64,000 bases of DNA from Synergistaceae bacterium. GTDB taxonomy: Bacteria > Synergistota > Synergistia > Synergistales > Aminobacteriaceae. Position numbers and translations under genes: made by a program. The DNA is taken from the NCBI GenBank assembly GCA_017443985.1, contig JAFSXR010000030.1, positions 516-64,515 of the forward strand, read 5' to 3'. Below, piece by piece: positions 31,720-51,914 of this stretch. How positions within the stretch are numbered: the stretch's first letter is position 1; every line of letters starts with the position of its first letter. Under the pieces are notes generated by a model. That model did not search any database and was not told where the DNA came from. It saw only the letters and a list, made by a program, of their open reading frames with translations.

Positions 31720-33672
31720 ATGAGAAAATATTTATTGCTTTTCATATTTTTTATTTTTTCACTCCTATCTCCTGTCTCCTGCTTCCTGTCTGAATTAACT
31801 GCCGCAGAAATTCCGCGCGCAAACCTCGACGAAGCAGAAAGATTTTTTAATAACGCCTACGTTCATTTCATGCGCCGCGATTACAGAGAGGCTCAGCTGT
31901 ATCTCGATCACGCGATAAACGAAAACACATATATGGTAGATTATTATTTGCTTAGCTCGTTAAATCTCAGCCGCATGGGCAACACCGAAGGCGCAATGTC
32001 AGCTATCAAAAGTTATCTCGAAGTCAGACCGATGGACGACTCCGCACCGCGCATAAGAAATTATTTTGAAGAACAGGACAGAGTCTTGAGAGCTGTATTA
32101 GACACCGCGCCTCTCCCCGTCAGCTGGCGTTCGGCAGAGACCACAGTACAGACTGAATGGGATACGGGATATACACGCCCGTTTAGCATAAAGGGGCTTG
32201 GAAAAATCAGCACGCTTGGCGAAATAGTCAGCATACCTGACACATTTGGAGATAAATTATATGTCCGCAACCCTTCTAAAAATTTAGTAGCAGGATCTTT
32301 CGGAATCGGAGGCACAATACGCGAGATCGATGTCCCTTCGCCGGTGATAGCTTTGCCGCTCGGAGATGGAACTTTCAGAGTTTTTACCAGCAACGGAGAT
32401 TTATACATGCTCAAAAATCTTGACGCTGACGCTGACGCAAAATTAACTTCAGCTGATTATTCCGAGTATATTGCGACTTTGCCGTCTATGGTCGTGGCTG
32501 ACGCTGAAATCCTTGCAGAAAATTTTTTTGCCGTCGCGGACCCTGCCGACAGAAATATAGCTTTTTATGTAGTTACGCCCTCAAGGCTCAGTGTAAGGAC
32601 ATGGGAGCCGCCGCTTGGAATCGGCGATTTATTATTCGAGCCCGTTGCTGTTGAGGGCTACGCGGATTGGCTTGCCATTGCCGACAGGGCGAACGACAGA
32701 ATTTATTTATTAAACTCTGTAAGCCATGAATATTTTGACATTCGAGGAGTGTCAAAGCCGCGAGATTTAATCTGGACCTCGTTTGGAAATTTATTTGTCT
32801 TGACGGAAGACGGAGATATTTACGACTTCACGATAGACTTCGGCACGCGCACATATGCGAACAGACATTCAGGCGCGTTATATTCAGGTTTGAAAAATAT
32901 ATGGTCGTTTTTTCATTCTGCTTATGGCGACATAAACTGGATGGACATCGGGGCCTCCAGAATTTTTAAGGCCGTTATGATCCCTTCACGAGAGGACGTG
33001 CCGGGCTTTTTAAGCATTTATAATCCCGTCATGGCAACTAACTTAGAAAATAACGAGAGCTTTATACTCGATGCTACTTTAATAACGCCGTTCGTAAATT
33101 ATTCTCATAACACAAGAATTATAGCTCAATCAGTTTGGAACGAGCGAAATATGCGCTGCAATGTCATGTGGCAGAAGCCGAAAAATTTTGATGCCCTTCT
33201 AATTCACGGGCCTATGCCACGCGGTCAGGCTTTCCCGTTAAACGTCAGACCGGCGCAGGTTACCTCAGGAACTGATATTAATTCGGTCTTATCATCTTTT
33301 TGGCTCCTCCACAAGGACACACTGACAAATATAATCATTGATGCTTCAATACCAATGAGAATAGATGATTTACTGATGCTCTTAAAATTCTGCGTGCTGA
33401 ACGGCCTTGAACTTGATATATATGCGAGAGACGTTCCTTCGCTGTCGCTGAAGCGTGCGAGTGCGTTTACAGGGGGCAGAACGATATATTCAATAGCGAA
33501 TACGATAAGCCTGCCGGTAAAGATGACTCATCTGCAGATTCAAATTCCTCTGCCTCAGGAATTATCTTCGTCAGGTTATCCGGGACGCTCAATGCTTGCC
33601 ATGTTCTTAGATGCCGGTTTAATTCAGTCAAGAGCGTGGATCCCCCTATATCCCGATATGTTTGAACGATAA
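31720..33672 (+). CDS. secreted hypothetical protein (TPR-like N-terminus, beta-rich remainder)
   Basis: Long ORF with a signal peptide (MRKYLLLFIFFIFSLLSPVSC). The helical-repeat-like region FNNAYVHFMRRDYREAQLYLDHAI.. is followed by about 500 aa with no motif I recognise. Confidence 0.6.
   Translation: MRKYLLLFIFFIFSLLSPVSCFLSELTAAEIPRANLDEAERFFNNAYVHFMRRDYREAQLYLDHAINENTYMVDYYLLSSLNLSRMGNTEGAMSAIKSYLEVRPMDDSAPRIRNYFEEQDRVLRAVLDTAPLPVSWRSAETTVQTEWDTGYTRPFSIKGLGKISTLGEIVSIPDTFGDKLYVRNPSKNLVAGSFGIGGTIREIDVPSPVIALPLGDGTFRVFTSNGDLYMLKNLDADADAKLTSADYSEYIATLPSMVVADAEILAENFFAVADPADRNIAFYVVTPSRLSVRTWEPPLGIGDLLFEPVAVEGYADWLAIADRANDRIYLLNSVSHEYFDIRGVSKPRDLIWTSFGNLFVLTEDGDIYDFTIDFGTRTYANRHSGALYSGLKNIWSFFHSAYGDINWMDIGASRIFKAVMIPSREDVPGFLSIYNPVMATNLENNESFILDATLITPFVNYSHNTRIIAQSVWNERNMRCNVMWQKPKNFDALLIHGPMPRGQAFPLNVRPAQVTSGTDINSVLSSFWLLHKDTLTNIIIDASIPMRIDDLLMLLKFCVLNGLELDIYARDVPSLSLKRASAFTGGRTIYSIANTISLPVKMTHLQIQIPLPQELSSSGYPGRSMLAMFLDAGLIQSRAWIPLYPDMFER
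31761..31790 (-). repeat. heptamer array (CTCCTNN orientation) inside the signal-peptide coding region of the 650-aa protein
   Basis: ACTCCTATCTCCTGTCTCCTGCTTCCTGTC encodes ..LLSPVSCFLS... Confidence 0.75.
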
Positions 33673-33685
33673 GCCGCGAAAAAAT

Positions 33686-33712
33686 TAAAGTCTCTCAACT
33701 TCGTTCCGATAT
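33686..33712 (+). promoter_or_regulatory. sigma-28 (FliA)-type promoter for flgM-flgN-flgK-flgL
   Basis: TAAA (33686-33689) - 15 nt - TCCGATAT (33705-33712), against the consensus TAAA-N15-GCCGATAA. It lies 69 nt upstream of the flgM ATG. Confidence 0.6.
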
Positions 33713-33780
33713 TGAATATAAAACGAGAAAGTCAGCAAAAAGACTTTATAAAAATCTTTATCAGAAGGAGGAGCGTAAAA

Positions 33781-34074
33781 ATGATTGGCAGAATATCAGG
33801 GCAGTATAACCTCGATGCCCTGAACGGTAAAAAATCAAGGCGAAATGTGTCGTACAACGGAAACTCAGCGACCGAGTCGGACAACGCGAATTTCAGCTCA
33901 TTCGGGACTTTGCTTGCGAAAGTCAACGCCGAGATAAAAAATATTCCCGATGTTCGTGAAGATGTTGTGGCAAATTTTAAGACGCAGGTTGAATCGGGAA
34001 AATACAATCCCCCGCTGGATAAGCTGGCTGGTGCTTTGATAATGGCCGGAATGTTAGACGTTGCGGCAGAGTAA
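33781..34074 (+). CDS. flgM: anti-sigma-28 factor FlgM
   Basis: 97 aa, SD GGAGGAG at 33767-33773. The C-terminal VREDVVANFKTQVESGKYNPPLDKLAGALI matches the FlgM sigma-28-binding helices, and the gene sits in the flgM-flgN-flgK-flgL context. Confidence 0.75.
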   Translation: MIGRISGQYNLDALNGKKSRRNVSYNGNSATESDNANFSSFGTLLAKVNAEIKNIPDVREDVVANFKTQVESGKYNPPLDKLAGALIMAGMLDVAAE

Positions 34075-34090
34075 AAAATAAATTGAGAAA

Positions 34091-34546
34091 ATGCGAGCCG
34101 AAGTCGAGAAATTAATCAGCGCGGTTCTTGACGAAGCCGACTGTATAGATGATTTAATTGACGTAATGCGCGAACAGCGTGATGCTATGGCTGAACGCGA
34201 TACCAAAGCGATAAATTCCTTAATGGACGAGTCTAGGGATATTTCTTTTGAAGTACAGACCCACGAAAATATACGCGACGATTTAGCAAAAAAATTAGCC
34301 GCTAAGTTTTCATGTGAGCCAAGAGCGAGTTCGCTTGCGTCAGTTATGCAAGATGATGAACGCGATGAATTTAACAGGGCTGCTGATAGGCTGTCGCAGT
34401 CCGTTTTTTTATTAAAGTCAGAAATAATGATATTAAACGGCCTTATAGACCAGAACGAAAAATATACTTCAATGTTGCTTTCGGAATGGCGCAGACTTAA
34501 CGGGGATACTATTTCGCAGTCTGGTTCGGCTGATTTCAGGGGGTAA
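34091..34546 (+). CDS. flgN: FlgN-like flagellar export chaperone
   Basis: 151-aa helical protein between flgM and flgK. The N-terminal L.....L..E......L...M.EQRDAM pattern is typical of FlgN. Confidence 0.6.
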   Translation: MRAEVEKLISAVLDEADCIDDLIDVMREQRDAMAERDTKAINSLMDESRDISFEVQTHENIRDDLAKKLAAKFSCEPRASSLASVMQDDERDEFNRAADRLSQSVFLLKSEIMILNGLIDQNEKYTSMLLSEWRRLNGDTISQSGSADFRG

Positions 34547-34552
34547 ATAAAA

Positions 34553-37500
34553 ATGAGCAGCACTTTCGGCGGTCTCGAAATGGGAAAATCCGCGTTAAAT
34601 GCCTTTAGACTTGGAATGCAAACCGTCGGGCACAACATATCAAACATGAACACTGAGGGATATTCCCGTCAGCGTGTAGTTTTTTCGACTGTTACGCCCG
34701 AAGATATTGCACACGTCGGACAGCTCGGTCAAGGCATGTACGCAAGTACTATTGAGCGTATCCGCGATGAGTTCTTGGATTTTCAATTTAGAGATAATCA
34801 AGCGACCTTAGGATATTGGGAAAAAATTAATGATTTATATGATTCTATTCAGAATTACATAGCCGAGCCGCAGTCTACGGGCTTGCGTTCAGCTATGGAT
34901 ACATTTTTTACTAATATGCAGACCCTGCAGAAATCCCCTGAAGATACAAGCGCAAGGACAGCTCTTGTCGAGTCAGCTAACTCGATCGGCGGAATGTTGT
35001 CCAATTTAATTTATAATTTTAATACTTATAACGAATCCATAAATATGCAGGTTCAACAGTCCGTCGCCGAAGCTAACCAGATGCTTTATGATTTAGCTGC
35101 TCTGAACAAAGAAATTACTAAAGCTGAAGCCTTAGACCAAAACGCTAACGATTTATACGATAAAAGAGATTTAATTTTGGATAAGCTCTCTAAAATGATG
35201 GACATTGAATATAATGAGCCTCTTGAAAGAGACGGAGTAAAGGGCGAATTTTTCTTGTCCGTTAATGGCCGTGTGCTTGTGCAGGGTATTCACGTTAGAG
35301 AGCTGAAAGCACATGCTTTCATGTGGGACAATCAGGTTTATTATGATGTCCAAGTCGCTGAAAACGAATTTGATATAGTTGACGATATAAACGTAGCTGA
35401 AGCCCTAGCGACAGGCCCGGAAGGAACGTATCAATTAACAGTTGACAGAGTCGCTAACGGCGTGGAATGGACCGCAGGCGGCGGCAATGCTCACTGCTTG
35501 GAAGTTACAGCCGCAGTAACATCTGAATTTGATACAAAAATCACGGCAGGCGGAGCTAACGTCGGACTGCTGCCTACAGTAGAGCTTGAGACATCAAAAT
35601 TAGAGGACGGAATTATTCTTGATAAAGATGATACCGGGTCTCACTCGCTTTCTTTTGCAATGACGGACAGCAACGGTACAGCTTCAAACCTTAATGTAAC
35701 TATTACAAAAACACAAACTGTTGAGATTCAAACTGCAAGAATAAAAAACACTGTAACGGGCATTGACAACGCAAATATCCTCGACAGATATTCAGGAGAC
35801 GGGCCGTACACATTATCTTTTACAACAAATAGCGGCACTTCTACAATCACGATACAAAGAACGGACGACGGCTGGCAATTAACTGACGGCACAAACACGA
35901 CGACAGTTGCTTCTACAAATTTAGATATAAGCTCGCTTGCAAGTTTTCTGAACGGATTGAGTGCAGGTTTTTCAGCAACGGTCAATACTTCTTCAAATAC
36001 GATGACCTTCAAAGTAACTGACAGTCCGATAGATGCGTCAACATCAATTATTTCTATAAGCGACACAAGCAATTTGCTTGGAACTCTGACAGAAAAAAAA
36101 TACTGGCAGCTTAGCGACGGCACCACGTCAACGGTGATAGAGGAAGAAGATTTAACGGTAACTGACCTCGCAGACTTTATCAACAGCACCGGCGCAGTTT
36201 TTACGGCAACGGCTGACACTGCAAATAATTTGATGACGTTCAGACTAAACAGTCCTCTTAGCGTAAATTCTTCGATTGAATTGACTGACACTGACGGAAT
36301 TTTAGGAGACGTAGCAAAAGTTAAAGACCCGGAAAATACGGTATTGAATTTATCCGGAAGTTTTGATATTCAGTATGGAGACCAGACAATTTCAATTACT
36401 GTTGCCAGCACGGATACTCTTGCGACAATCAGGGATAAAATTAACAATCAGGCCGCGTCTAATACTGTGCTTAAAGAGGCGGATTTCACTGCTTCGACGG
36501 ACAGAGGCTATCTGACGATCAGCGCGGACAGCAACAACGGAGAAACCATAACGATTACGAGCAGCAGCGATGCTTCTATGCTTGAAACGCTGGGCCTTGT
36601 ATCATCGGGCACGACAGTCTCGACTGAAGGAAATTTTGTTTTAGACTCTTCGTCGGCCGATATACCGTATAAGTTATCGTTCAGAGTTCTTGATGAAGAT
36701 GATGTTCCGTCAGTGTTGACAATAAAAATTGACAGAGCTGAATATGTTAATGATGAGAATAACCGCGTCAATGGCTGGACCTTACGGGCTGAACTTAACG
36801 GAGAGCCGATCTATTACGATACAGACTCAAAGGGCAATATAGTTTATCATCACACCAACGGCGAAAATTTGACGCTTGAGGAATTACAAAACTTCATTAA
36901 TGACGCAGCTTCAGACGGCGATGTTGCGCTTGAGGCCAATATAAGCAATAACTCTCTTGTTTTTACATCGACTGCTGAAAATTCCTTAGAAATTACTGAC
37001 TATACGGGCATGTTGGGCGTATTGACGGAGATCAAGCGGGAATTAGCAGGCGTAACCATGAGGGCGGAGCCTGCTGAAATCACGGACGCTCTTAATATTT
37101 CAGGCTCGTTTAGAATACAGGTAGGCACACAGGGAACTCGCGTAACGTCCGAAGTTTTTAGGGAGAATAACGCGAAAAATCTTGCTGAGGGCGATATTCT
37201 TGCGCAAGGCACGGCAGGCGAAAAGCATACTTTCAGAGTTGGAGTAGCCGGAGATCAGGTCGATTTTTCGGCAACTTGGAACACTTCAACGGGAAAATGG
37301 GTTTTAAGCTCTGACTTAGGAATGAGCGCGGCCGCAGGAGAAACTCTCACAGTAAAAGATTTAACGGACTTCATGATGAAAACTTTTTCAAACGCCGACA
37401 AGGCAGACAATCCTGCGCTAATCAGCCTGAGCGTAACGACCGGAAAATCATCAACAGGAACTTTGACGCAGTTTTATGTTGAGAGCAAAGACAATCATTT

Positions 37501-38728
37501 AATCTCAATTTCAGATGTCGAGGGTAATTTAGCCGAACGCTTAGGAATTGTAAATAAAAATCCCGTCATTACGATTGACGTTGAAAGCTCTGACAGCTTG
37601 GTAACAATCAGAAATAAAATCAACGAAAAATATCAGGCTGAATTTGGACTGACAGAGCCGGAGCAATGGGTACATGCTTCAGTTGACAACGGCTATTTAG
37701 AAATTTCAGCAAACGTCGCCGGAGAGGCACAGCGCATTACTTTAATGGGCTCTGAGGACGGAAATATGCAGGTCTTGCGCCGTCTTGGCCTTACAAGAAA
37801 TCAGCAGATAATTTCTGAACTTAAAAACGACGATGACGAAAATCTTATGAGTTTCAGAGAAATTGCTTACATTCCCGACACAGGAATAGCAGAGGACGCT
37901 TCACTCAGCTTAAACGGCGTTCGTTATCTTTCGTCTGACAATAAATTTAACATGGCGAGAAGAATACCCGCGCTTACCGGCGATACACAAAGCCGTTACA
38001 GTGCTTCGGAGTTGAGCGAAGTCAGCGAGGGAATGTGGCTTAATTTGAAAGATGCCGGCAGCACAATAATAACAGTGAGGCATCATATTCAAGACGGTTC
38101 AATTAAAGCACTTGAGGAAGCACGCGATGAAATGATACCTAACCTTAAATCAGAACTCGATGAGCTTGCATACGGGCTTGTGAAACATATAAATGCTTTG
38201 CAGTATTCCGGCTACGGCGTTGCAAGCGATATAACTTCGACAGGCGTTGCGTTTTTTGACTCGCTCGGCTCTCAATCGGGAGCGTCTGAAAAGCTAAAAG
38301 TTAATGACAAAGTTGTCGATGATCCTTCATTAATCGGCGCAGCTATGGGCTTGAAAGATGAAAACGGTCTTGCGCTTAAAGGCGTGAGCGGAGGGTCTGG
38401 CGACGGCACTAACGCTTCAAGAATGAATAACTTGAATTTTGATAAAATTCTTGAACACGGCACTATGACAATCAGCGGAATTTATGACGCTATGCTCGCT
38501 CAAATAGGCACAGAGGCAGGACACGCAAAACTTATGTACACGACGCAGGCAACGGTCAGCGAACAAATTGACAGCCAGCGTCAGGCAGTCAGCGGAGTTA
38601 ATCTCGATGAAGAATTAATGGACATGGTCATATTAAACCGCGCATTCGGTGCAATGTCGCGCTACATAACAACTATGGACGAAATGTTGAACACAATAAT
38701 TAACGGCATGGGCTTAGTAGGCCGATAA
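34553..38728 (+). CDS. flgK: flagellar hook-associated protein 1 FlgK, giant 1391-aa form
   Basis: The N-terminus [40 protein letters not shown] and the C-terminus [38 protein letters not shown] are canonical FlgK rod/hook-type termini. About 850 aa of extra central sequence is built of repeated modules. Confidence 0.9.
   Translation: [1391 protein letters not shown]
35873..36330 (+). repeat. two adjacent ~77-aa modules in FlgK (further diverged copies start near 36773 and 37292)
   Basis: [63 protein letters not shown] is followed by [62 protein letters not shown]. Confidence 0.8.
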
Positions 38729-38751
38729 ATAATGTAAACCGTTGAATGAAA

Positions 38752-38788
38752 CCCCTCCTGGAGATTTTAACGGGAGGGAATTTTTTTT
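38752..38788 (+). terminator. possible intra-operon attenuator/terminator between flgK and flgL
   Basis: CCCTCC (38753-38758) pairs with GGAGGG (38773-38778), followed by the T8 run 38781-38788. The stem is short. Confidence 0.4.
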
Positions 38789-38806
38789 AAGGAGAGTATA
38801 TAAATA

Positions 38807-41800
38807 ATGTACAGCCGCCTTACAACAGCAACAATGTACGGAAGTTTAATGAACTCTTTGCAGTCGGCACAGAGAAATATTCAGGACTTACAGCAGCAGA
38901 TAGCTTCCGGAAATAAATATACAAAATTATCTGATAATCCTGCGGCGATATCGCGCTCACAGACAGTGCAGTCGGCCCTCAACGCGAATACCCAGTATCA
39001 GGAAAACACCAGAGACGCTCTGACTATGCTCAGACATGCAAACAGCGCGCTTCAGAATGTTCTTGACGCGGCAAAAACGATAAGAAATTTGATTATAGAG
39101 GCCGGAGACGCTGCGCTTGACTCGAGTCAGTTAAAAGATATTACGGCACAAATAGAAGCCAATAAAAAAATCATGCTTGACAATCTTAATACAAAAGTTG
39201 CAGGGCAATATCTTTTCGGAGGAACAAAAACAGGAACGGTGCCTTTTGTTGAAAAATCTGACGGAAGTATAGAATATCAAGGCTCCGATGAAAGAATTAA
39301 ATATGTATTAAGCGAAAATTTATTAGGGGATATTTCTTTTGCAGGAAGCGATATTATCCCTGAAAATGAAGATACTTATTTTATATGCTCTCACTATGTG
39401 CCGCTGGATTGGAAATGGACAGGACGCGAGGAAAAAGTTCAGATTACTGTCGGGAACCGTACGCTTTCAGTTTTTATCCCTGAGGACTGGAGCGACAACG
39501 ACATCAGCAAGACTAACAAACATACTGATGAATATGTTGACGAGGAAAATATACAGAGCTTGAATTTTTCTGACGCAAACGGTTTCAGAGACCCTAACGA
39601 ACTTTCTGGAATAAGTCTTGAGGATTTAGCAACGATTATTAACAATTCCCTTGAGGAACAGGGCGCGGATATGCTTGTCAATGCTTATATCGAGAGAGAT
39701 TATGACAGCGGAACGCAGCAGCTAATCATAAAATCCAATACCGGCGAAAAAGTCGGCATAACAGGCTGGCCCGACACGGATTATATGCCGATGCCCGCGA
39801 CTATAAAGAGCCTTGATTTAAGCAGTAAAGACTGCGAAGGCTGGAACGATGAAGGATCGACTATTACAATATCCACCCTTGAGGGCAACGTTACGCCGGT
39901 AACGATTGAGATAACTGAAGATGACACGCCGGAAACCCTCGCAGGAAAAATCAACGCTATTGAGGGAATTTATGCACGTCATTCAGCAGACGGCAACAGC
40001 ATCGAGATTTTAGCAGAACGCATAGGCGATATTCCTTCCGATAAACTTGCAATTAACGAGGCTGAAGAAGCTTTGCACTATCCTTCGCTTGTTGTTGCGG
40101 CTGAGGGCGGAGCGTTAAAAATGTTTGGTGAATTTTTGGACGAGAGCGGAGAAGTAGCAAAAAGTTCCGTGATTGTAAAATCTAAAGTCAGGAATACTGA
40201 TCAAAGCCACATAGATATTTTTGACTATCTCGGAATGGAGACGGCGACAAAGAGCCGCGAGTTTTCTCCTGATGAAAAATTAACCGTAGAGGACGGAACA
40301 CAATTACATTGGCGCGTAATAAGCGGAGGCCGGAGCGTTGATATAAAATTAAATTCCGGCGAATACACAATCGATCAACTGGCCGAACGGTTAAAAAACG
40401 CCGGTGCAGGCTGGCTTGAAGTTACAGTAGAGCCCGGCGGCCATGACGTAACAGAATCGACGCTTGAAAATCATTCTGACGATCACGAAGAAGAGACAAA
40501 ACGAATTGTAATGCGCGGCTATAACGGCGAGCAGGTTATATTTTTGGATATGAACGAATATAACTATGCTGACAAGTTAGGCGTATCAACAGCTTTAAGA
40601 ACCGACGCTTACGAAGATTCTTCGGGAACTGGCATGAAATGCGTGAATTTCCCCTCCGCTCCGTGCGTTGATGATAACGTCGGGGTGCCGATGCGCGTAC
40701 AAATGAACTGCGGAATGTATTACGATGTTAATATAAAACGCACCGATGTAGTTGACAGCGCGACAGGCTTTGTCGATAGAGCTTTATTAATGCAGGAAAT
40801 TGTTGACCAAGTAAATGAAATCGAGGGTCATAATATTATGGGATTTGCCCAGCATCTTGACAGCACAGGGCAGGATATAGAGGGCTCGTGCTCTATGTAT
40901 TTCTTATCCGGCGAGGCTTTTACAGTTGTAGATATGCCTTTTGAAGATCCTGAATGGGACGATTATTCCGGCGGTCTTGCCGTCCAGCTCGGCATTCACG
41001 GCGGAGTGTCCTCAAATTTACAGCAGACTCACATAAAAATGCTCGACAATGCGACATTTGCTGAAGCATATAGCAGCGACTCGGATAAATACGGCGATGT
41101 TGAAGCAAACCCTGATAATTTTGACTTTAGGGAAGGAACTATACGCTTTTCAAATTTAGCTCACAGCGTTGAAATTGACGTAAACGCCAATGACACGGTA
41201 AAAGATGTCATGGACAGATTAAGAGTGCAGGCAGGCGACTGGCTCTACGTGAACTATTATGACGCTCACATGGGACAGGACGCAACGCGCAACACCGGCG
41301 ACTATCCTTTAATTGCGATTTCATCAAAAGACGGCTCGGCTGTAAATGTTTTAGATATTAAAGGACACATAGCAGAAGACGCGCTCGGACTTTCAACGGG
41401 TATCCAGAGCAGATTGAATTATGACGGCAAGGGCAGCGGCATCATGGACTTTGAATGGGATGTCAACGACCAGGCATATGACGACGGCGGCTCTGTTGAT
41501 TTTCCTGCTGACGCTCTGAATATTACTGTCGCGGGCTACACACACACGCTTGATTTGACAACCATTCGAGACGTTACAAACGACGACACAATAAAAGCTG
41601 ATGATGTTGCAGAATTTATTAATTCCCGTATGCAGGATTATGACGTTAGAGCAGAAATTAACGCTGATAGCGAACTGATGATTTACTCGCCTCGCGGTTA
41701 TTCTGTTGAAATTTCTTTCCTTGCAAATGTTACGGATAAATTTATCGGCGATGTCAATTCCGGTGCAAGCAGAAACGGCTCTGCTGTGTCGTCAAGTCTG

Positions 41801-42937
41801 GCGCAGACAAGCAAAAAAATTACAACGACACAAACATTCGCTGATATTTACGGCTCTGATTTCAGAGACAGCACTATAAAATTCTCCAGCGCGTCTAACA
41901 GCGTAGAGGTTGACGTTAGCTCAACTGATACTGTTGAAACTCTCATGAACAGAATACAAACGGAAGCAGGGAGCTGGCTGACAGTTAGTTACGACGGCAC
42001 GGGTGATTATCCTGTTATTTCTGTTACCGAAAGCAGCGGCTCTGCTCTCAGCGTCATTGACATGAGGGGACATATTGCTGAGGACGTTCTTGGAATTTCA
42101 ACAGGTATTCAAGGAAGGCTTAACGAGGACGGAACAGGTGACGGCGCGATGGCTCTTGAGTGGGACTTAGAAAATAAATCATTCCCTGCCGAACAAGTCA
42201 ATCTTACTGTCAACGGCGTTACTCACTCTGTGGATTTGACGAAGATCGGCGAGTTTATTACAGATAACGACGTAACGACTGACGATGTTGTAGACTACAT
42301 TAACTATAAAATGCAGGATTACGACATCAGGGCGGCGATCAACGCTGACAAGGAAATAGTAATATATTCGCCCGGCGGTTCATCGGTCAAAGTAAAATTT
42401 CTCGACAACGCTAACAAAGAATTTTTGGGCGAAGATGATTACGTTCTGAGCAGGACGCATTATCGCGGAGGCTATGACCTTGAGGGCAAAGCATATTATG
42501 ACGGCGAAAACGATCCTCGCGGAGTTGACAGCGATAATTTATATTCAAGCGGAATGCACACTCAAAACGCCACAATAAGAAGCGGAGCAAACACCGCGAG
42601 ACAAAACGCCTTCGGAACAATTAATGACGTTATCGCGGCTATTAAATCAGGCAACAGAGACGACCTGCAGAATAAAATGCTCCCCAGAATTGATAGCATG
42701 ATTAACGATATTCTCGCTGTCATGGCTGAGGACGGAGCTTTACAGGCGCGTTATAACTACAACACCGAAAGACTTACGACTGAAAATGCAGTCATGACGG
42801 AAGATTATGACAACCTCATGAAGATTGACCCCGCCGATGCAATTTCGCAGTTAATGATCGCGGACTACATGTATCAGGCAAACTTGGCAGTCATTGCGCG
42901 GTTAATTCAGCCGAGCTTGTTGGATTTTCTTGGATAA
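38807..42937 (+). CDS. flgL: flagellar hook-associated protein 3 FlgL, giant 1376-aa form
   Basis: The N-terminus RLTTATMYGSLMNSLQSAQRNIQDLQQQIASGNKYTKLSDNPAA and the C-terminus DPADAISQLMIADYMYQANLAVIARLIQPSLLDFL are flagellin-superfamily D0/D1 termini typical of FlgL. It follows flgK. Confidence 0.85.
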   Translation: MYSRLTTATMYGSLMNSLQSAQRNIQDLQQQIASGNKYTKLSDNPAAISRSQTVQSALNANTQYQENTRDALTMLRHANSALQNVLDAAKTIRNLIIEAGDAALDSSQLKDITAQIEANKKIMLDNLNTKVAGQYLFGGTKTGTVPFVEKSDGSIEYQGSDERIKYVLSENLLGDISFAGSDIIPENEDTYFICSHYVPLDWKWTGREEKVQITVGNRTLSVFIPEDWSDNDISKTNKHTDEYVDEENIQSLNFSDANGFRDPNELSGISLEDLATIINNSLEEQGADMLVNAYIERDYDSGTQQLIIKSNTGEKVGITGWPDTDYMPMPATIKSLDLSSKDCEGWNDEGSTITISTLEGNVTPVTIEITEDDTPETLAGKINAIEGIYARHSADGNSIEILAERIGDIPSDKLAINEAEEALHYPSLVVAAEGGALKMFGEFLDESGEVAKSSVIVKSKVRNTDQSHIDIFDYLGMETATKSREFSPDEKLTVEDGTQLHWRVISGGRSVDIKLNSGEYTIDQLAERLKNAGAGWLEVTVEPGGHDVTESTLENHSDDHEEETKRIVMRGYNGEQVIFLDMNEYNYADKLGVSTALRTDAYEDSSGTGMKCVNFPSAPCVDDNVGVPMRVQMNCGMYYDVNIKRTDVVDSATGFVDRALLMQEIVDQVNEIEGHNIMGFAQHLDSTGQDIEGSCSMYFLSGEAFTVVDMPFEDPEWDDYSGGLAVQLGIHGGVSSNLQQTHIKMLDNATFAEAYSSDSDKYGDVEANPDNFDFREGTIRFSNLAHSVEIDVNANDTVKDVMDRLRVQAGDWLYVNYYDAHMGQDATRNTGDYPLIAISSKDGSAVNVLDIKGHIAEDALGLSTGIQSRLNYDGKGSGIMDFEWDVNDQAYDDGGSVDFPADALNITVAGYTHTLDLTTIRDVTNDDTIKADDVAEFINSRMQDYDVRAEINADSELMIYSPRGYSVEISFLANVTDKFIGDVNSGASRNGSAVSSSLAQTSKKITTTQTFADIYGSDFRDSTIKFSSASNSVEVDVSSTDTVETLMNRIQTEAGSWLTVSYDGTGDYPVISVTESSGSALSVIDMRGHIAEDVLGISTGIQGRLNEDGTGDGAMALEWDLENKSFPAEQVNLTVNGVTHSVDLTKIGEFITDNDVTTDDVVDYINYKMQDYDIRAAINADKEIVIYSPGGSSVKVKFLDNANKEFLGEDDYVLSRTHYRGGYDLEGKAYYDGENDPRGVDSDNLYSSGMHTQNATIRSGANTARQNAFGTINDVIAAIKSGNRDDLQNKMLPRIDSMINDILAVMAEDGALQARYNYNTERLTTENAVMTEDYDNLMKIDPADAISQLMIADYMYQANLAVIARLIQPSLLDFLG
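41126..42433 (+). repeat. diverged tandem ~200-aa duplication inside flgL
   Basis: FREGTIRFSNLAHSVEIDVNANDTVKDVMDRLRVQAGDWL..IKGHIAEDALGLSTGIQSRLN..MQDYDVRAEINADSELMIYSP (41126-41752) is repeated as FRDSTIKFSSASNSVEVDVSSTDTVETLMNRIQTEAGSWL..MRGHIAEDVLGISTGIQGRLN..MQDYDIRAAINADKEIVIYSP (41861-42433). Confidence 0.85.
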
Positions 42938-42947
42938 TTTTTTTGAT

Positions 42948-42976
42948 GGATTAGGAATTAGGAGTGAGGAGTTAGA
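42948..42976 (+). repeat. SD-like heptamer array after the flgL stop, forming the left arm of its terminator
   Basis: GGATTAGGAATTAGGAGTGAGGAGTTAGA. Confidence 0.85.
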
Positions 42977-42996
42977 AACCTTGCTCCTAATTTTTT
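42958..42996 (+). terminator. rho-independent terminator after flgL (in the convergent gap with valS)
   Basis: TTAGGAGTGAG (42958-42968) pairs with CTTGCTCCTAA (42980-42990) over 11 bp including 2 G-U pairs, followed by T6 at 42991-42996. The right arm plus T-run is identical to the one at 13930-13948. Confidence 0.55.
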
Positions 42997-45670
42997 ATTG
43001 CTTCAGGCTTTCTAAATTCGCTTTCAATCTTTCAATTTGCGCTTGGCCTTCAGAAACTTTTGCGCGTTCTTTCTCGACAACTTCAGCCGGAGCGCGTGAG
43101 ACAAAATCTGCCTTATCGAGCCTCGCCTGACTCTTTGCAATTTCTTTTTCGATTGAAGTTATTTCGCCCTCAAGCCTCGTTATTTCTTTCGGAACGTCAA
43201 GAACATCGCCGACGGGTAATTTAATTTCAGCTTCGCCCGTTACTGATGAAAGCGACGCACCGTAACTCCATTCGCCCGAAGGCTCTTCAAGAATTACATC
43301 ACGGACGCGGCAAAGATTTGAAATTTGATTTAATGACGCTCTCAAAATTTTTGCGGCCTGCGAGTTTGAGCTTACGCGGATAACTGCCTTGTTAAGCCAC
43401 TGCTGCGGAGCTACATGGGCTTCTGCGCGTAAGTTCCTCAAAGTTCTGACAGCGTCCTGCAAAATTTTCATCTCCGAAGTAACGCCCTCGAAAATAAATT
43501 CTTTCTTTGCTTCCGGCCATTTTGAACGCATTATAAATTCATCGCCGTAGCCGAAAGCAAACCATAGCTCTTCAGTTACAAAAGGAATGAACGGGTGCAA
43601 TAAAGGCAGCGTAGTTTTGAAGACTTCTTCAAGAACTCCTGCGGTGGTCTTGCGTCTCTCCTCACCTTCGTCGCCTTTCAACGCAGGCTTCGACATTTCT
43701 AAATACCAGTCGCAGAGATCCCCCCACACAAAATCATAGAGGCTCCGCGCCGCCGTGCCTATGTCGTAGCTGTCGATTAACTCGCGGACTTTAGAGGCCA
43801 TCTCCTGAGTCCGGGTTAATATAAATTTGTCGTGCATGTGAAGCTGATTTATATCAACCGCGTGAACTTCGTCATCTAAATTCATTAATGCGAAGCGTGA
43901 GGCGTTCCACAACTTGTTCATGAAAAATCTGTAAGTCTCGATTCTCGTTGACGATAAAAGAATGTCGCGCCCCTGCACCGAGAGAGCCGCTAATGTCATT
44001 CTCAAAGCGTCCGCGCCGTACTTCTCAATCATTACTAACGGGTCAATGACGTTGCCTTTCGTCTTGCTCATTTTCTTTCCGTGTTCGTCGCGGATTAACG
44101 AGTGAATATAAACGTCCCTGAAGGGTACATCGTCCATAAACTCCAAGCCCATCATAATCATTCGCGCAACCCAGAAGAAAATAATATCGAAGCCCGTTAC
44201 CATTAACGAAGTCGGATAAAAATATTTTAATTCCGGCGTATCATCGGGCCAGCCCATCGTCGAGAAAGGCCAGAGGGCAGAGCTGAACCAAGTGTCAAGC
44301 ACGTCGCTTTCCTGCTCAATATTTTTGCTGTGGCAGTGTTCGCACTCCGTCGGGTCGGTCTCGGCTACTGTTATGTGTCCGCAGTCGGAGCAAATCCACG
44401 CCGGTATCCTGTGCCCCCACCATAACTGACGCGAGATGCACCAGTCGCGGATATTTTCCATCCAGTTAAAATAAGTTTTCTCCCACTGATCCGGCACCCA
44501 CTTAATGCGCCCGTCCTTGACAGCCTGCACGCCTCTTTCAGCAAGCGGCTTTGTCTTGACGAACCACTGTTCGGACAAATAAGGCTCGACCGTTGTTCCG
44601 CAGCGTTGGCAATGACCGACAGAGTGAGTAATTTTTTCGGTCTTTAATAAAAGTCCGAGAGCTTCTAAATCTTTCACGGACTCTTCACGCGCCTGCTCAA
44701 TCGTCATGCCTTTATATTTTCCTGCGTTCTCGTTCATAATGCCCTGAGCGTCAATGACTTGTATTTGTTCTAAGTCATGATTTAAGCCGACTAAAAAGTC
44801 ATTCGGGTCATGAGCAGGAGTGATTTTTACACAGCCCGTTCCAAATTCCGGGTCAACCATGTTATCTTCAATGATTGGTATTTCGCGCTCGGTCAATGGA
44901 ACTTTCACGTGCTTTCCGATTAAATGCTTATATTTTTCCGAGCGAGGGTGAACGGCAATCGCAACGTCGCCGATTATAGTTTCGGGGCGCGTCGTGGCAA
45001 CGAGAATAAAATCTTCGCCGCAATCCTTTTCAACTAAGGGATATTTGACGTAATAAAAATTGCCCTGCGTCTCCTCGTACTCGACTTCTAAATCAGAAAT
45101 TGCCGTTGCGCATCGCGGGCACCAGTTGACGATATATTTTCCGCGATAGATTAAACCTTTTTTGTATAACTTCACAAAATCAGCGCGGACTGCTTTTGAA
45201 AGTCCTTCATCGAGAGTAAATCTCTCGCGCCTCCAGTCGCAGGAGTTGCCCAAGCGTTTCATCTGCTCGATAATCCTTGAGCCGTAAACTTTTTTCCATT
45301 CCCAGACTTTTTCAACAAATTTTTCGCGGCCTAAGTCGTAGCGTGAAATTCCTTTTTTCGCTAAATCTTTTTCGACAACGTTCTGAGTCGCTATGCCTGC
45401 GTGGTCAGTGCCCGGCAGCCATAAAACGCTGTAGCCCTCCATGCGCTTTGTTCGGCACATAATATCTTGGAACGTGTGATCGAATGCGTGTCCGACGTGA
45501 AGAGAGCCGGTTACGTTCGGCGGAGGGATCACGATCGAAAATGCTTTTGCTTTGAGGTTGATCTCGGCATTAAAGAGGCCATTCTCAAGCCACTTAGCGT
45601 ACCACTTCTGCTCAATGTTATCGGGCGAATAATTTTTTTCAAGATTTCTGTTGCGAATTTTTTTTCTCAT
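42995..45670 (-). CDS. valS: valine--tRNA ligase
   Basis: PPPNVTGSLHVGH (HIGH), KMSKTKGNV (KMSKS), the CP1 editing domain and the C-terminal coiled coil (..EIAKSQARLDKADFVSRAPAEVVEKERAK..). Confidence 0.95.
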   Translation of the reverse strand: MRKKIRNRNLEKNYSPDNIEQKWYAKWLENGLFNAEINLKAKAFSIVIPPPNVTGSLHVGHAFDHTFQDIMCRTKRMEGYSVLWLPGTDHAGIATQNVVEKDLAKKGISRYDLGREKFVEKVWEWKKVYGSRIIEQMKRLGNSCDWRRERFTLDEGLSKAVRADFVKLYKKGLIYRGKYIVNWCPRCATAISDLEVEYEETQGNFYYVKYPLVEKDCGEDFILVATTRPETIIGDVAIAVHPRSEKYKHLIGKHVKVPLTEREIPIIEDNMVDPEFGTGCVKITPAHDPNDFLVGLNHDLEQIQVIDAQGIMNENAGKYKGMTIEQAREESVKDLEALGLLLKTEKITHSVGHCQRCGTTVEPYLSEQWFVKTKPLAERGVQAVKDGRIKWVPDQWEKTYFNWMENIRDWCISRQLWWGHRIPAWICSDCGHITVAETDPTECEHCHSKNIEQESDVLDTWFSSALWPFSTMGWPDDTPELKYFYPTSLMVTGFDIIFFWVARMIMMGLEFMDDVPFRDVYIHSLIRDEHGKKMSKTKGNVIDPLVMIEKYGADALRMTLAALSVQGRDILLSSTRIETYRFFMNKLWNASRFALMNLDDEVHAVDINQLHMHDKFILTRTQEMASKVRELIDSYDIGTAARSLYDFVWGDLCDWYLEMSKPALKGDEGEERRKTTAGVLEEVFKTTLPLLHPFIPFVTEELWFAFGYGDEFIMRSKWPEAKKEFIFEGVTSEMKILQDAVRTLRNLRAEAHVAPQQWLNKAVIRVSSNSQAAKILRASLNQISNLCRVRDVILEEPSGEWSYGASLSSVTGEAEIKLPVGDVLDVPKEITRLEGEITSIEKEIAKSQARLDKADFVSRAPAEVVEKERAKVSEGQAQIERLKANLESLKQ

Positions 45671-47977: not shown

Positions 47978-48003
47978 GAATTAGGAGTTAGGAGGTAGGA
48001 GGT
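47972..48003 (+). repeat. tandem 7-nt SD-like repeat array spanning the thiM stop and the thiE RBS
   Basis: AGGTAGGAATTAGGAGTTAGGAGGTAGGAGGT. The thiM TAG (47975-47977) lies inside unit 1. The thiE ATG at 48005 follows directly. Confidence 0.9.
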
Positions 48004-48004
48004 T

Positions 48005-48643
48005 ATGAGATTAAATAAAAAAGATTTAATTCTTTACGCCGTAACTGATAGAACTTGGCTGAACGGAAGAAAATTATACGGCGACGTTGAGAAAGCTATA
48101 CGGGGCGGTGCGACGTTAATTCAACTGCGCGAAAAAAATTTAACTCACGAAGAATTTAAGGCCGAAGCCCTAGAAATTCAACAGCTCTGCAAAAAATACA
48201 GCGTACCTTTTATCATTAATGACGATGTTGAATTAGCGCACGAAATTGACGCTGACGGAGTTCACGTGGGTCAAGACGACATGGAAGCCGGGAACGTAAG
48301 AAATTTAATCGGCAGTGAAAAAATTTTGGGCGTTTCCGTTCAAACTCCTGAGCAGGCAGTCTTAGCCGAGAGCAAGGGCGCGGATTATTTAGGGGCAGGC
48401 GCGGTCTTTCACACTAACTCTAAACTTGACGCGGCTGACGTTTCTCACGAGGTGCTGAAAAAAATCTGTGAGGCTGTAAAAATTCCCGTTGTCGCTATCG
48501 GCGGAATAAACGCGAAAAATATTAATCAGCTCGCAGGGACAGGAATTGCCGGAGTCGCTATAATAAGCGCGATATTCGCCGCTGATGATATAGAAAAATC
48601 AGCGCGTGAATTAAGAAACTTATCTGGAGACTTGGGGCAATAA
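48005..48643 (+). CDS. thiE: thiamine-phosphate synthase
   Basis: LYAVTDR, IQLREK, INDDVELA, DGVHVGQDD and PVVAIGGI are the canonical ThiE (TMP-TENI) motifs. Confidence 0.9.
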   Translation: MRLNKKDLILYAVTDRTWLNGRKLYGDVEKAIRGGATLIQLREKNLTHEEFKAEALEIQQLCKKYSVPFIINDDVELAHEIDADGVHVGQDDMEAGNVRNLIGSEKILGVSVQTPEQAVLAESKGADYLGAGAVFHTNSKLDAADVSHEVLKKICEAVKIPVVAIGGINAKNINQLAGTGIAGVAIISAIFAADDIEKSARELRNLSGDLGQ

Positions 48644-48646
48644 AAA

Positions 48647-49276
48647 TTGAACAATTTATTAGCAATTATTTTTGACGCTGACGGGACAATTTTAGACTCG
48701 ATGTATATTTGGCACGAGCTTGGCGGAAGATACCTGCGGAGCATTGACGTTGAGCCGGAAAGAAATTTAGCCGAAATTCTTTATCCTTTGAGTCTTGAAC
48801 AGGGCTGTGTGTATCTCAAAGAAAGATACGCGCTTGAGCAGACTCTGCCGGAAATCCGGGAAGGCATCGTGAGAATTATTCAGGATTTTTATATTGATGA
48901 GGTCGGTTTGAAGGCAGGCGTAAGAGATTTTCTTCAGTCAATGCTTGAAAAAAATATCCCGATGGTCATTGCAACATCGGGCGACAGAACTTTATTAAAC
49001 GCTGCTCTCGAACGCAACGGCATCGCAGGATATTTCAACGCTATTTTCACTTGCTCGGAACTTGAAACTAACAAGCATGAGCCGAAAATTTATCTCGAGT
49101 GCGCAAAATTTTTCGGTCTTGAGCCGTATAACATTGCCGTCTTTGAGGACAGCTTATTCGCGCTTGAGACAGCGAAGGCCGCAGGCTTTATCACGTTCGG
49201 CGTTGAAGATGATTCTAATATTAACGACCGCGAAAGAATTATTGAAGTCGCGGATTTTTACACGGACTTTTGTTAA
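48647..49276 (+). CDS. HAD-superfamily (subfamily IA) hydrolase/phosphatase
   Basis: Motif I IIFDADGTILDS, motif II VIATSG, then K and the acidic motif IAVFEDSLFALETAKAAG. TTG start. Confidence 0.8.
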   Translation: MNNLLAIIFDADGTILDSMYIWHELGGRYLRSIDVEPERNLAEILYPLSLEQGCVYLKERYALEQTLPEIREGIVRIIQDFYIDEVGLKAGVRDFLQSMLEKNIPMVIATSGDRTLLNAALERNGIAGYFNAIFTCSELETNKHEPKIYLECAKFFGLEPYNIAVFEDSLFALETAKAAGFITFGVEDDSNINDRERIIEVADFYTDFC

Positions 49277-49293
49277 AGGATATCATCGTGTAA

Positions 49294-49325
49294 AATAATA
49301 ATATAAGTGTGTTTATATTATTATT
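49294..49325. repeat. perfect AT-only inverted repeat (13-bp arms, 6-nt loop)
   Basis: AATAATAATATAA (49294-49306), loop GTGTGT, then TTATATTATTATT (49313-49325). It sits at the upstream edge of the AT-rich insertion. Confidence 0.9.
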
Positions 49326-49375
49326 CACTTAAATATTAGATGATAATGGCGTCTCAAAAAAATTAGGAGTTTTTT

Positions 49376-51097: not shown

Positions 51098-51100
51098 AGC

Positions 51101-51910
51101 ATGAAAAAAATTTTTGCCGTATTAATAATTTTATTTTTATTTTTTAGCGTTAGTGCCGCGCCGGTTTATTCTGCTGAAAAAAATGAGAAGAGCGAAATAA
51201 CTTCAGCTAAAGAGCTTTATCGCGATCTCAAAAAAAATTTCAGCAAGGACAGAGCCTACTATAAAAATCTCAGCGACGAAGGTTTTGCAAATTTCCGCGA
51301 GGTCAGCACGACAGGAATCGGCAGGGGAATTTTGTATCGTTCGTCATCGCCAATAAACGACTGGGGCAATAGAAACATAACGGCTGATAATCTTTCGCGC
51401 CGGGCAAAAATAAAAACTTTTGTAAATCTCGTGGACGATTATAAAAAAATGACAGGCTACAAAAATTTTTCACGGACTTATTACAGCACGCAGAAAGCAA
51501 TCGCGCTAAATTTTGACTTAAAATTTATGTCCAAAGATTTTCAGAATAAACTTGCAAGAGCCGTAAAATTTATCGCTGACAGCGAACCGCCATTTTTAAT
51601 CCACTGCAACTTGGGCAAGGACAGGACGGGGCTGGTCTGCGCTGTGATCGAGGCCGTAACGGGCGCGTCTTCCGAAGAAATCGCAGAAGATTTTATGAAA
51701 TCTTTTTATAATTATTTCAGCGTCATGCCCGGCTCAAAAGAATATGAATTTATTGTCAGTCATGAGATACGCTCTTTTCTTGCGTCAATGCTTGGCGTAA
51801 AAAATATTGACGACGTAAATTTATACGCGGCCGCTGAAAAATATTTGTTAAAAATCGGAGTTGCTTCAGAAGATATTGAGAAAGTCCGCAAAAAACTTGG
51901 AGGAAAATAA
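51101..51910 (+). CDS. secreted tyrosine-phosphatase-like protein (CX5R, Y_phosphatase3-like)
   Basis: Signal peptide MKKIFAVLIILFLFFSVSAAPVYSA and the active-site loop HCNLGKDRTG (C-x5-R-T). Confidence 0.7.
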   Translation: MKKIFAVLIILFLFFSVSAAPVYSAEKNEKSEITSAKELYRDLKKNFSKDRAYYKNLSDEGFANFREVSTTGIGRGILYRSSSPINDWGNRNITADNLSRRAKIKTFVNLVDDYKKMTGYKNFSRTYYSTQKAIALNFDLKFMSKDFQNKLARAVKFIADSEPPFLIHCNLGKDRTGLVCAVIEAVTGASSEEIAEDFMKSFYNYFSVMPGSKEYEFIVSHEIRSFLASMLGVKNIDDVNLYAAAEKYLLKIGVASEDIEKVRKKLGGK

Positions 51911-51914
51911 ATTT

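Follow-up and report, generated by a model that had tools for sequence, protein, structure and literature searches.

What does it mean for a flagellum when the two proteins that join its filament to its hook are enlarged about three- to four-fold? The question is raised by a stretch of 64,000 nucleotides from a Synergistaceae bacterium (assembly GCA_017443985.1, contig JAFSXR010000030.1, positions 516 to 64,515 of the forward strand), which we call the window. A first-pass annotation, made by reading the DNA without database searches, had named two neighbouring open reading frames (ORFs) in it as the hook-associated proteins (HAPs) FlgK and FlgL, with 1391 and 1376 amino acids (aa). Both were said to have kept their axial ends and to carry some 800-1050 extra residues of acidic, repeated sequence, and the filament cap FliD was said to be a giant as well. 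The sizes and coordinates of the pair proved correct, and so did the reference sizes used for the comparison, the Salmonella chains in the PDB having 553 aa (FlgK) and 317 aa (FlgL). The three genes are as follows.

34553 to 38728, plus strand: flgK (HAP1), 1391 aa, ATG start, 150.5 kDa, isoelectric point (pI) 4.4
38807 to 42937, plus strand: flgL (HAP3), 1376 aa, ATG start, 151 kDa, pI 4.3
18291 to 22883, minus strand: fliD (HAP2, filament cap), 1530 aa, Pfam FliD_N and FliD_C, apart from the flgKL operon

Both ends of FlgK and FlgL carry the signatures of canonical axial proteins. In FlgK, Pfam recognizes FlgK_D1 (3.4e-41), Flg_bb_rod at residues 9-37 and Flg_bbr_C at residues 1346-1384, and the NCBIfam equivalog TIGR02492 (flgK_ends) is matched with 284.9 bits against a cut-off of 170.75. 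In FlgL, Flagellin_N covers residues 7-142 (4e-13, 50 bits) and Flagellin_C residues 1294-1375, and the equivalog TIGR02550 reaches 196 bits against a cut-off of 127.2. A sequence search of the PDB paired FlgK with Salmonella FlgK (9go6_A, 1.9e-31, residues 12-254) and with Campylobacter jejuni FlgK (9gsx_L, 608 aa), and FlgL with the FlgL structure 5yti (2e-12, residues 4-183) and with Salmonella FlgL. These matches were confined to the terminal axial domains, and the same search returned nothing for the central 800-1060 residues; a SpoIID entry that came up for the inserts at E 0.07 was disregarded. The gene order, as annotated by Pfam, is flgM-flgN-flgK-flgL, with a spacer of 78 bp between the last two. 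With the domains, the equivalogs and the flgN-flgK-flgL context all in agreement, the two ORFs can be taken as genuine FlgK and FlgL of an uncultured Synergistaceae bacterium from the rumen, with canonical D0/D1 axial termini, and the conservation of the axial domains suggests that FlgK would assemble as an 11-subunit layer between the hook and FlgL.

The closest relative of this locus is found in a metagenome-assembled genome (MAG) from sheep rumen, L001 (Sheep_2_mag_86), whose genes are collinear with those of the window at 95-97% identity and encode a FlgK of 1391-1392 aa (1392 as an ORF, 1391 in the tblastn match) and a FlgL of 1376 aa. Collinear full-length genes are also present in L002 and L003; the three MAGs come from different animals and different studies. 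The exact FlgK protein has in addition been recorded before (P0001), from two contigs. No direct DNA repeats of at least 30 bp were found inside the flgK-flgL region, the GC (guanine plus cytosine) content of the operon is uniform, and the ratio of nonsynonymous to synonymous substitution rates (dN/dS) against L001 lies between 0.02 and 0.23 in every segment. Since relatives carry the same adjacent giant pair, repeats are absent and dN/dS is this low, assembly chimeras and decaying ORFs are excluded. The first of these had been named in the first-pass annotation as something that would overturn its claim, and it is refuted by the collinear genes of L001 and the lack of repeats.

The architecture of the two proteins is best seen when they are divided into segments, each of which is given here with its dN/dS against L001 where one was obtained.

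34553 to 35530, plus strand: FlgK residues 1-326, N-terminal D0/D1 helices and a D2-like start; nearly invariant in the clade; dN/dS 0.02
35531 to 36640, plus strand: FlgK residues 327-696, an extra block of about 370 aa with three IN-type modules; the fastest-evolving part; predicted local distance difference test score (pLDDT) mostly 85-95; dN/dS 0.23
36641 to 37942, plus strand: FlgK residues 697-1130, the core insert of three IN-type modules and beta domains; common to all Synergistaceae FlgK; dN/dS 0.08
37943 to 38725, plus strand: FlgK residues 1131-1391, C-terminal D1/D0 axial region with Flg_bbr_C; dN/dS 0.07
38807 to 39376, plus strand: FlgL residues 1-190, N-terminal D0/D1 axial helices with Flagellin_N and the 5yti match; dN/dS 0.03
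39377 to 41116, plus strand: FlgL residues 191-770, proximal insert A, 580 aa with four IN-type modules; found in Synergistales FlgL only; dN/dS 0.05
41117 to 42556, plus strand: FlgL residues 771-1250, tandem super-modules of about 240 aa (771-1017 and 1018-1250) with two IN-type modules each; dN/dS 0.11-0.12
42557 to 42934, plus strand: FlgL residues 1251-1376, C-terminal D1/D0 axial helices with Flagellin_C; 100% identical to L001

The inserts thus amount to 804 aa in FlgK and about 1060 aa in FlgL. The composition of both is acidic (pI 4.3-4.4), with much Thr, Ser, Asp and Asn; D, T and S make up 7.7, 9.8 and 9.3% of FlgK and 10.2, 7.0 and 8.4% of FlgL. Internal repeats became visible when the proteins were chopped into 120-aa windows for BLAST; a self-comparison of the whole proteins missed them. 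The clearest are the two super-modules of FlgL, of which residues 773-989 and 1018-1216 are about 50% identical (E 1e-35 to 1e-40). In FlgK, residues 441-555 match 518-650 (7e-17) and residues 599-676 match 992-1072 (3e-10, 38% identity), and in FliD residues 481-597 match 620-751 with 63% identity. Cross-similarity between FlgK, FlgL and FliD is weak (25-30% identity).

AlphaFold2 models were built from alignments of 53 relatives for FlgK and 57 for FlgL. The model of FlgK residues 255-1185 has a pLDDT of 80.9 and a predicted template modelling score (pTM) of 0.72, and that of FlgL residues 150-1300 has 79.8 and 0.78. Both are mainly beta, with one amphipathic helix in every 70-120 residues, and when the segments are centred on these helices, 6 modules can be aligned in FlgK and 8 in FlgL. 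All 14 follow one pattern, a beta-hairpin, a helix of the form S/T-x-D-T-hydrophobic-x-x-hydrophobic-x-x-x-I/F-N and further beta strands, which is the pattern of the flagellin hook IN motif. The modules were set from the predicted secondary structure, a jackhmmer search started from a single FlgK module having converged on only 2-6 of them. Pfam's own Flagellin_IN family detected one module only, at a sub-threshold 17.9 bits (cut-off 22.7), and for this reason we regard the modules as highly diverged versions of PF07196. A second Pfam assignment was rejected. The ubiquitin domain reported at FlgL residues 1025-1055 (window positions 41879-41971) passes its cut-off by a narrow margin, 25.6 against 25.4 bits, and falls on an IN-type module; it can be read as the beta-hairpin and helix of the IN motif resembling the first half of a beta-grasp fold.

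The predicted folds lead to the same group of proteins. In a Foldseek search of the PDB, the FlgK insert was matched to C. jejuni FliD (9gsx, 1e-4) and a Geovibrio flagellin (2e-4), as well as to domains D2/D3 of Pseudomonas aeruginosa FliC (8erm, probability 0.85) and to C. jejuni FlgK (probability 0.96, root-mean-square deviation (rmsd) 4.8 Å over 158 columns). The FlgL insert was matched to Helicobacter pylori FliD (6iwy, 9.8e-6, probability 1.0) and to domains D2-D3 of Salmonella and Escherichia coli FliD (probability 0.85-0.93; for 5h5v and 5xlk, 0.91-0.93 with an rmsd of about 6 Å over 112-150 columns). Flagellar proteins dominate the top matches; whole-model template modelling (TM) scores are only about 0.1-0.3, because entire multi-domain models were compared. 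The insert modules are therefore likely, on these models, to fold like flagellar outer domains (D2/D3 of FliD and of flagellin), which is not the same as proven. Modelling the inserts and searching with the models had been proposed in the first-pass annotation, whose description of them as acidic, Thr/Ser/Asp-rich, beta-looking and built from repeated modules is borne out by the BLAST windows, the composition and the models alike, with some 800-1060 residues in each protein.

How widely are these sizes shared? A scan that took one genome per GTDB species gave 49 loci from Synergistales, Synergistaceae and Fretibacterium (L001-L049), which appear to come mostly from the rumen of sheep, goat, deer and reindeer. 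Wherever the locus is complete, flgK adjoins flgL and both are giant, FlgK with 887-1526 aa and FlgL with 1096-1380 aa; outgroup loci in the same scan have a FlgK of 455-632 aa and a FlgL of 291-645 aa. The order flgN-flgK-flgL is kept in about 35 genomes. The majority of the FlgK proteins measure 1006-1036 aa, and six reach 1392-1526 aa. Among the matches listed, the largest are 1533 aa for FlgK, 1579 aa for FlgL and 2136 aa for FliD. Those relatives that carry names are Synergistaceae bacterium or Fretibacterium sp. MAGs, and the automatic annotation of NCBI calls the proteins FlgK, FlgL and FliD. The gene calls are therefore not new; what has gone unremarked is the pattern of sizes. The first-pass annotation would have yielded to relatives that were of the same size, annotated and characterised. 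Close relatives do regularly have the size and the annotation, which takes this objection half of the way.

The inserts are under purifying selection that is graded by region: dN/dS is 0.02-0.07 in the axial parts (0.02-0.03 in those of FlgL), and the inserts range from 0.05 to 0.23. For FlgL insert A, the constraint equals that on the helices of the axial tube. At the other extreme is the extra block of FlgK (residues 327-696), which is missing from the relatives of about 1020 aa. Where the core of a relative is still 88-92% identical, the block itself is down to 43-60%. Its orthologues are confined to the nearest subclade (P0001-P0007), and in all other relatives what it finds are paralogous core modules, 30-39% identical. 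For this reason the other long FlgK proteins, of about 1395, 1530 and 1200 aa, must have grown independently. Among the FlgL proteins, those of 1095-1238 aa (e.g., P0126 and P0129-P0134) cover 70-72% of the query, which is consistent with the FlgL proteins of about 1100-1200 aa lacking one super-module of about 240 aa.

Insert A was also searched for by itself among 1.84 billion cluster representatives, and only 41 proteins were found. In 21 of the 41 the match starts at about residue 180-197, the rest being deeper matches or fragments, and the full-length proteins measure about 780-1320 aa; by these start positions and sizes, insert A is almost exclusively of FlgL type. Its members include proteins from an Aminobacteriaceae MAG (1017 aa), from the cultured species Aminiphilus circumscriptus (WP_029166080.1, 1113 aa) and from a Synergistales MAG (1054 aa), and with such carriers the giant FlgL is an old trait that spans the order. 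Taken together, the sequences show an expansion that is ancient and Synergistales-wide, and to which single sublineages are still adding modules. A separate observation concerns P0397, a protein of 2343 aa on a 1.48-Mb ENA contig and the only match to insert A clearly outside a FlgL-type position. Seven repeated stretches of it match query residues 169-246 (E 1e-6), and it may represent the use of a related module in a different giant protein.

The third HAP follows the same trend. As the first-pass annotation had claimed, FliD is a giant, with FliD_N and FliD_C within its 1530 aa. Its relatives, among the matches listed (P0241-P0360), range from 874 to 2136 aa in a bimodal distribution, near 950 aa and at 1200-2100 aa, and no other HAP of this clade varies as much in length. 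The gene stands alone between genes for a patatin and tryptophanyl-tRNA synthetase (TrpRS), both in the window and in the close relative L082. In the more distant L083, too, it stands apart from flagellar genes, with other neighbours, among them a GT4 glycosyltransferase downstream.

For the flagellin, we have to turn to the Fretibacterium branch. In one Fretibacterium MAG (L044), a flgK of 887 aa and a flgL of 1314 aa are accompanied by a flagellin gene at 15529-17556, cut at 676 aa by the end of the contig. Metagenome contigs carrying close relatives have complete flagellins of 880-885 aa, with Flagellin_N at 1e-46, Flagellin_C at 2e-27 and IN-type modules.

L085, 2112 to 4757: flagellin of the Fretibacterium branch
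L086, 2292 to 4934: flagellin of the Fretibacterium branch
L088, 321 to 2978: flagellin of the Fretibacterium branch

In L085 the flagellin gene lies downstream of flgL-fliW (fliW was checked in this locus alone). With flagellins of 880-885 aa beside giant HAPs, all four distal axial proteins are enlarged in the Fretibacterium branch. The first-pass annotation had asked whether flagellin is enlarged too, and for this branch the answer is yes; the flagellin of the window organism itself was not located. The broader suggestion of a coordinated outward elaboration is in keeping with three HAPs enlarged across the clade and a flagellin of about 880 aa in this branch.

There are precedents for enlarged junction proteins. 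The closest in layout is FlgK1 of the Fla1 flagellum of Rhodobacter sphaeroides, described by Castillo et al. in 2009 and since reviewed. FlgK1 has 1363 aa, of which about 860 form a central region with IN motifs and internal repeats attributed to duplication; the HAP region is bulky by electron microscopy, and the insert is needed to bear the motor load (PMC7277832). Deletions of 100 aa in the insert left flagella of normal appearance that were unable to propel the cell (PMC7277832). The FlgK of the window is nearly identical to FlgK1 in size and layout, with conserved termini flanking a central insert with IN motifs and repeats, and its 1391 aa and 804-aa insert agree with the definition of a giant FlgK that can be drawn from the same review (more than 1300 aa, with a region of about 800-860 aa that has IN motifs and repeats; PMC7277832). 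There are also clear differences. Only FlgK is reported as giant in R. sphaeroides, while FlgL and FliD are giant here as well; and the host there is an alphaproteobacterium with a gene set from a gammaproteobacterium, while the Synergistales proteins are known from sequence alone.

A joint enlargement of HAPs has been seen in C. jejuni, where FlgK has 608 aa and FlgL 750 aa, and where FliD, of which 9gsx models about 630 residues, has an additional domain D4. By cryo-electron microscopy, the bulky domains D2 of FlgL and D4 of FliD pack together at the junction and the cap (PMC12221982). Structures from Campylobacter and Helicobacter (9gsx, 6iwy) are also the best Foldseek matches of the modelled inserts. 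The HAPs of C. jejuni and H. pylori reach, however, only about half of this size and have gained one or two domains in place of 6-8 modules; they belong to a different phylum, and similarity between their inserts and the present ones is undetectable in sequence. A third precedent is given by the giant flagellins (>1000 aa) and thick filaments of Bermanella marisrubri and Oleibacter marinus, with Synergistetes among the phyla listed (PMC6248924). These too have kept their D0/D1 helices while the surface region has grown enormously, which results in a thicker structure. They are filament subunits, while the FlgK and FlgL discussed here are junction proteins of about 11 copies each, and the study of giant flagellins filtered out FlgL and left HAP sizes unexamined (PMC6248924). 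As for the repeated unit, its IN signature and predicted D2/D3-like fold resemble PF07196 Flagellin_IN and the D2/D3 domains of FliD; 6-8 modules in one protein are unusually many.

How, then, did these inserts arise, and what might they do? Serial duplication of beta-beta-alpha-beta modules of 70-120 aa with the IN motif has expanded the surface region between the axial domains. In the explanation we propose, the conserved helices would still join 11 FlgK and 11 FlgL subunits, the canonical stoichiometry seen in Salmonella and C. jejuni; if it holds here, the junction would weigh about 3.3 MDa, compared with about 1 MDa estimated for Salmonella from the chain lengths. The outer domains would extend radially and surround the junction with a bulky collar, which could match the diameters of a thick filament and cap and stiffen the transition from hook to filament, and the outermost, faster-evolving modules would face the environment. 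Because FliD and, in the Fretibacterium branch, flagellin are enlarged too, the collar can be pictured as the junction counterpart of a thick layer of outer domains. The mechanical part of the argument draws on the precedents of R. sphaeroides FlgK1 and the domain packing at the C. jejuni junction and cap. By analogy with these, we consider a bulky outer-domain collar that matches a thick filament and cap to be the probable explanation.

Several points weigh against this explanation and keep it at that level. The flagellin of the window organism was not found in the window, near fliD in relatives, or by extension through the proteins at the window edges, of which one is not on record and the other lies on a contig of 2 kb. 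The branch that supplies the large flagellin is a distant one, its FlgK being about 52% identical. For Synergistales, both the collar and the mechanical role given to it are something we infer by analogy. The Foldseek E-values are modest and the TM-scores low, and a hidden Markov model of the modules was built from the very segments it describes, which makes its E-values circular and fit for display only. R. sphaeroides FlgK1 is likened to the present FlgK by its description and not by sequence; the two inserts are likely of independent origin, as presumed from the phyletic distance. Finally, FlgL insert A has three cysteines (194, 620 and 635) that occur without exception in 57 of 57 sequences. 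They hint at a function more specific than bulk, for which a metal site or a disulfide would be candidates. Cysteines are rare in flagellar axial proteins. Cysteine 315 of FlgK is invariant as well, across all aligned relatives.

These cysteines enter into a bolder version of the collar, in which the outer layers of FlgK, FlgL, FliD and flagellin would make up a continuous sheath or collar from junction to cap, with the cysteine-bearing insert A as an 11-fold ring that serves as a bushing or anchor for the outer layer of the filament. Such an architecture would be without counterpart in characterised flagella, and we hold it only tentatively, as a possibility well short of the probable.

A different function altogether would follow if the outer modules were primarily adhesins or ligand binders, for host mucin, plant fibre or partner cells, and the flagellum an attachment organelle in which mechanics is secondary. 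The modules are indeed beta-rich, acidic, Thr/Ser-rich and surface-exposed, and secondary Foldseek matches of low probability include an ice-binding adhesin and strings of fibronectin type III domains. It is also the tip protein, FliD, that varies most in length, as would be expected of an adhesin facing the environment, and P. aeruginosa and C. jejuni both use FliD as an adhesin. The junction, however, sits near the cell surface and has just 11+11 subunits, which makes it a poor site for adhesion, and the Pfam scan detected no lectin, carbohydrate-binding module or known adhesin domain. More telling is insert A, which is conserved like the axial helices and nearly restricted to FlgL; this speaks for a structural, self-interacting role rather than for diversifying ligand binding. 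We consider adhesion as the primary function unlikely.

Somewhat less likely still is a rapidly diversifying shield, by which antigenic variation, a decoy or a mask would protect against flagellotropic phages or host immunity. A decoy of this kind, antigenic or for phage receptors, was among the functions suggested in the first-pass annotation. It gains some plausibility from the extra block of FlgK, which outpaces the axial core about tenfold (dN/dS 0.23 vs 0.02), from the different blocks gained by different sublineages, and from a fold search of BFVD, which returned phage sheath and baseplate proteins only. The latter matches have TM-scores of about 0.1 and were judged non-specific. Selection tells against the shield more strongly: dN/dS is well below 1 in every region, and most of the insert mass (the core insert of FlgK and the 580-aa insert A of FlgL) is strongly conserved across genera. 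Nor does the DNA contain repeats or cassettes by which phase or antigenic switching might be driven, and a cover at the junction alone would protect little of the flagellum. The decoy is for these reasons disfavoured, and the outer-domain collar remains the explanation we prefer.

Two further readings would dispose of the question instead of answering it. The protein of 1376 aa might be a giant flagellin of the kind reported by Thomson et al. in 2018 and not FlgL, as it has both Flagellin_N and Flagellin_C, and a member of the Synergistetes, Aminomonas paucivorans, is reported to have giant flagellins (PMC6248924). This is very improbable. It is the FlgL equivalog that is passed, while the flagellin equivalogs fail with 18-37 bits against cut-offs of 217-423. 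Its best PDB match is likewise to FlgL, flagellins following at 1e-3 or worse; the one stronger entry, 9gsx_A (2e-6), bears the label 'Flagellin' but represents FlgL, a junction subunit of C. jejuni. The Flagellin_N score of 50 bits compares with 157 bits in genuine flagellins of the Fretibacterium branch, which in L085 lie downstream of flgL-fliW, and the position directly downstream of flgK is constant in all genomes examined. That the long ORFs are artefacts of assembly or annotation (chimeric contigs, collapsed repeats or fused genes), to which repeat-rich genes in a metagenome assembly are prone, is next to impossible with an identical FlgK from two contigs, collinear full-length genes in L001-L003, no repeats, uniform GC content and a reading frame maintained throughout.

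It remains to say what is new. A search of the literature on flagellar structure and hook-associated proteins in Synergistetes and Fretibacterium found nothing relevant. In the literature searched, a FlgL of more than 1000 aa, a FliD of up to about 2100 aa and a matched set across the order Synergistales appear to be undescribed. The first-pass annotation was not aware of any description of a matched giant set, and the novelty that this implied was overstated: a giant FlgK had been published for R. sphaeroides (PMC7277832), and a moderately enlarged set of FlgK, FlgL and FliD is known from C. jejuni (PMC12221982). The finding is thus a modest extension of known biology, with insert A of FlgL as its most distinctive element; general principles are unchanged, the giant FlgK with a bulky HAP region being already in print. 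It nevertheless touches an active topic, the elaboration of outer domains in axial proteins, in which thick filaments, outer-domain sheaths and the structures of junction and cap solved in 2025 all have a part. The clade offers an extreme natural case, with distal axial proteins enlarged together and the number of modules varying between close relatives, and bears on the transmission of torque through a junction of about 3.3 MDa and on the co-evolution of HAP outer domains with filament thickness. A cultured species with a giant FlgL exists in Aminiphilus circumscriptus.

The remaining features of the operon are listed below.

33686 to 33711, plus strand: sigma-28 (FliA)-type promoter-like site, TAAAGTCT-N14-CCGATA, about 70 bp 5' of the probable flgM ATG
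33712 to 34074, plus strand: flgM (anti-sigma-28 factor), Pfam FlgM 9.6e-12
34091 to 34546, plus strand: flgN (export chaperone for FlgK and FlgL), Pfam FlgN 1.2e-11
38753 to 38788, plus strand: hairpin followed by T8 in the flgK-flgL spacer, 8-bp stem and 10-nt loop, -15.4 kcal/mol, z -1.7 (weak)
42949 to 42999, no strand assigned: operon terminator, a strong hairpin with a T-run in the convergent flgL/valS gap, -21.1 kcal/mol, z -5.3, 0 of 200 shuffles as stable

The flgM ORF was called mechanically from the TTG at 33712; an AGGAGG ribosome-binding site precedes the ATG at 33782, which is probably the true start, the TTG being wrong. The site at 33686-33711 is the sole match to TAAA-N14-16-CCGATA in the window, and on this consensus match it is a putative sigma-28-type promoter; scans for sigma-70 promoters and short-loop terminators across the operon gave matches at chance level only. 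From its gene content and this site, flgM-flgN-flgK-flgL reads as a sigma-28-type operon of late flagellar genes. The hairpin in the spacer is terminator-like and possibly acts as a partial terminator, yet FlgK and FlgL are needed in equal numbers.

The other genes of the window are mostly housekeeping in nature: valyl-tRNA synthetase (ValRS), TrpRS, pyruvate kinase, CdaA/YbbR, a MacB-OEP-ABC exporter, and genes for thiamine, cobalamin and histidine. Between the exporter cluster and flgM lies an ORF of 650 aa (31720-33672, plus strand) that matches no Pfam or NCBIfam family; the related contig L082 has the same gene, also of 650 aa, in the same place. The GC content falls to 0.35-0.37 at 48000-52000, compared with about 0.44 elsewhere, and an ORF of 573 aa without a family match (49376-51097, plus strand) is found inside the thiamine-related run (ThiM, ThiE, HAD, ..., ThiD, TPK). 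Motility-related genes are scattered in this genome and not clustered. Two further loci of possible interest are a CheX-like CheY-P phosphatase at 15418-15909 (plus strand), which scores below the NCBIfam cut-off, and a response regulator with a hybrid histidine kinase carrying an Hpt domain at 251-3050 (plus strand).

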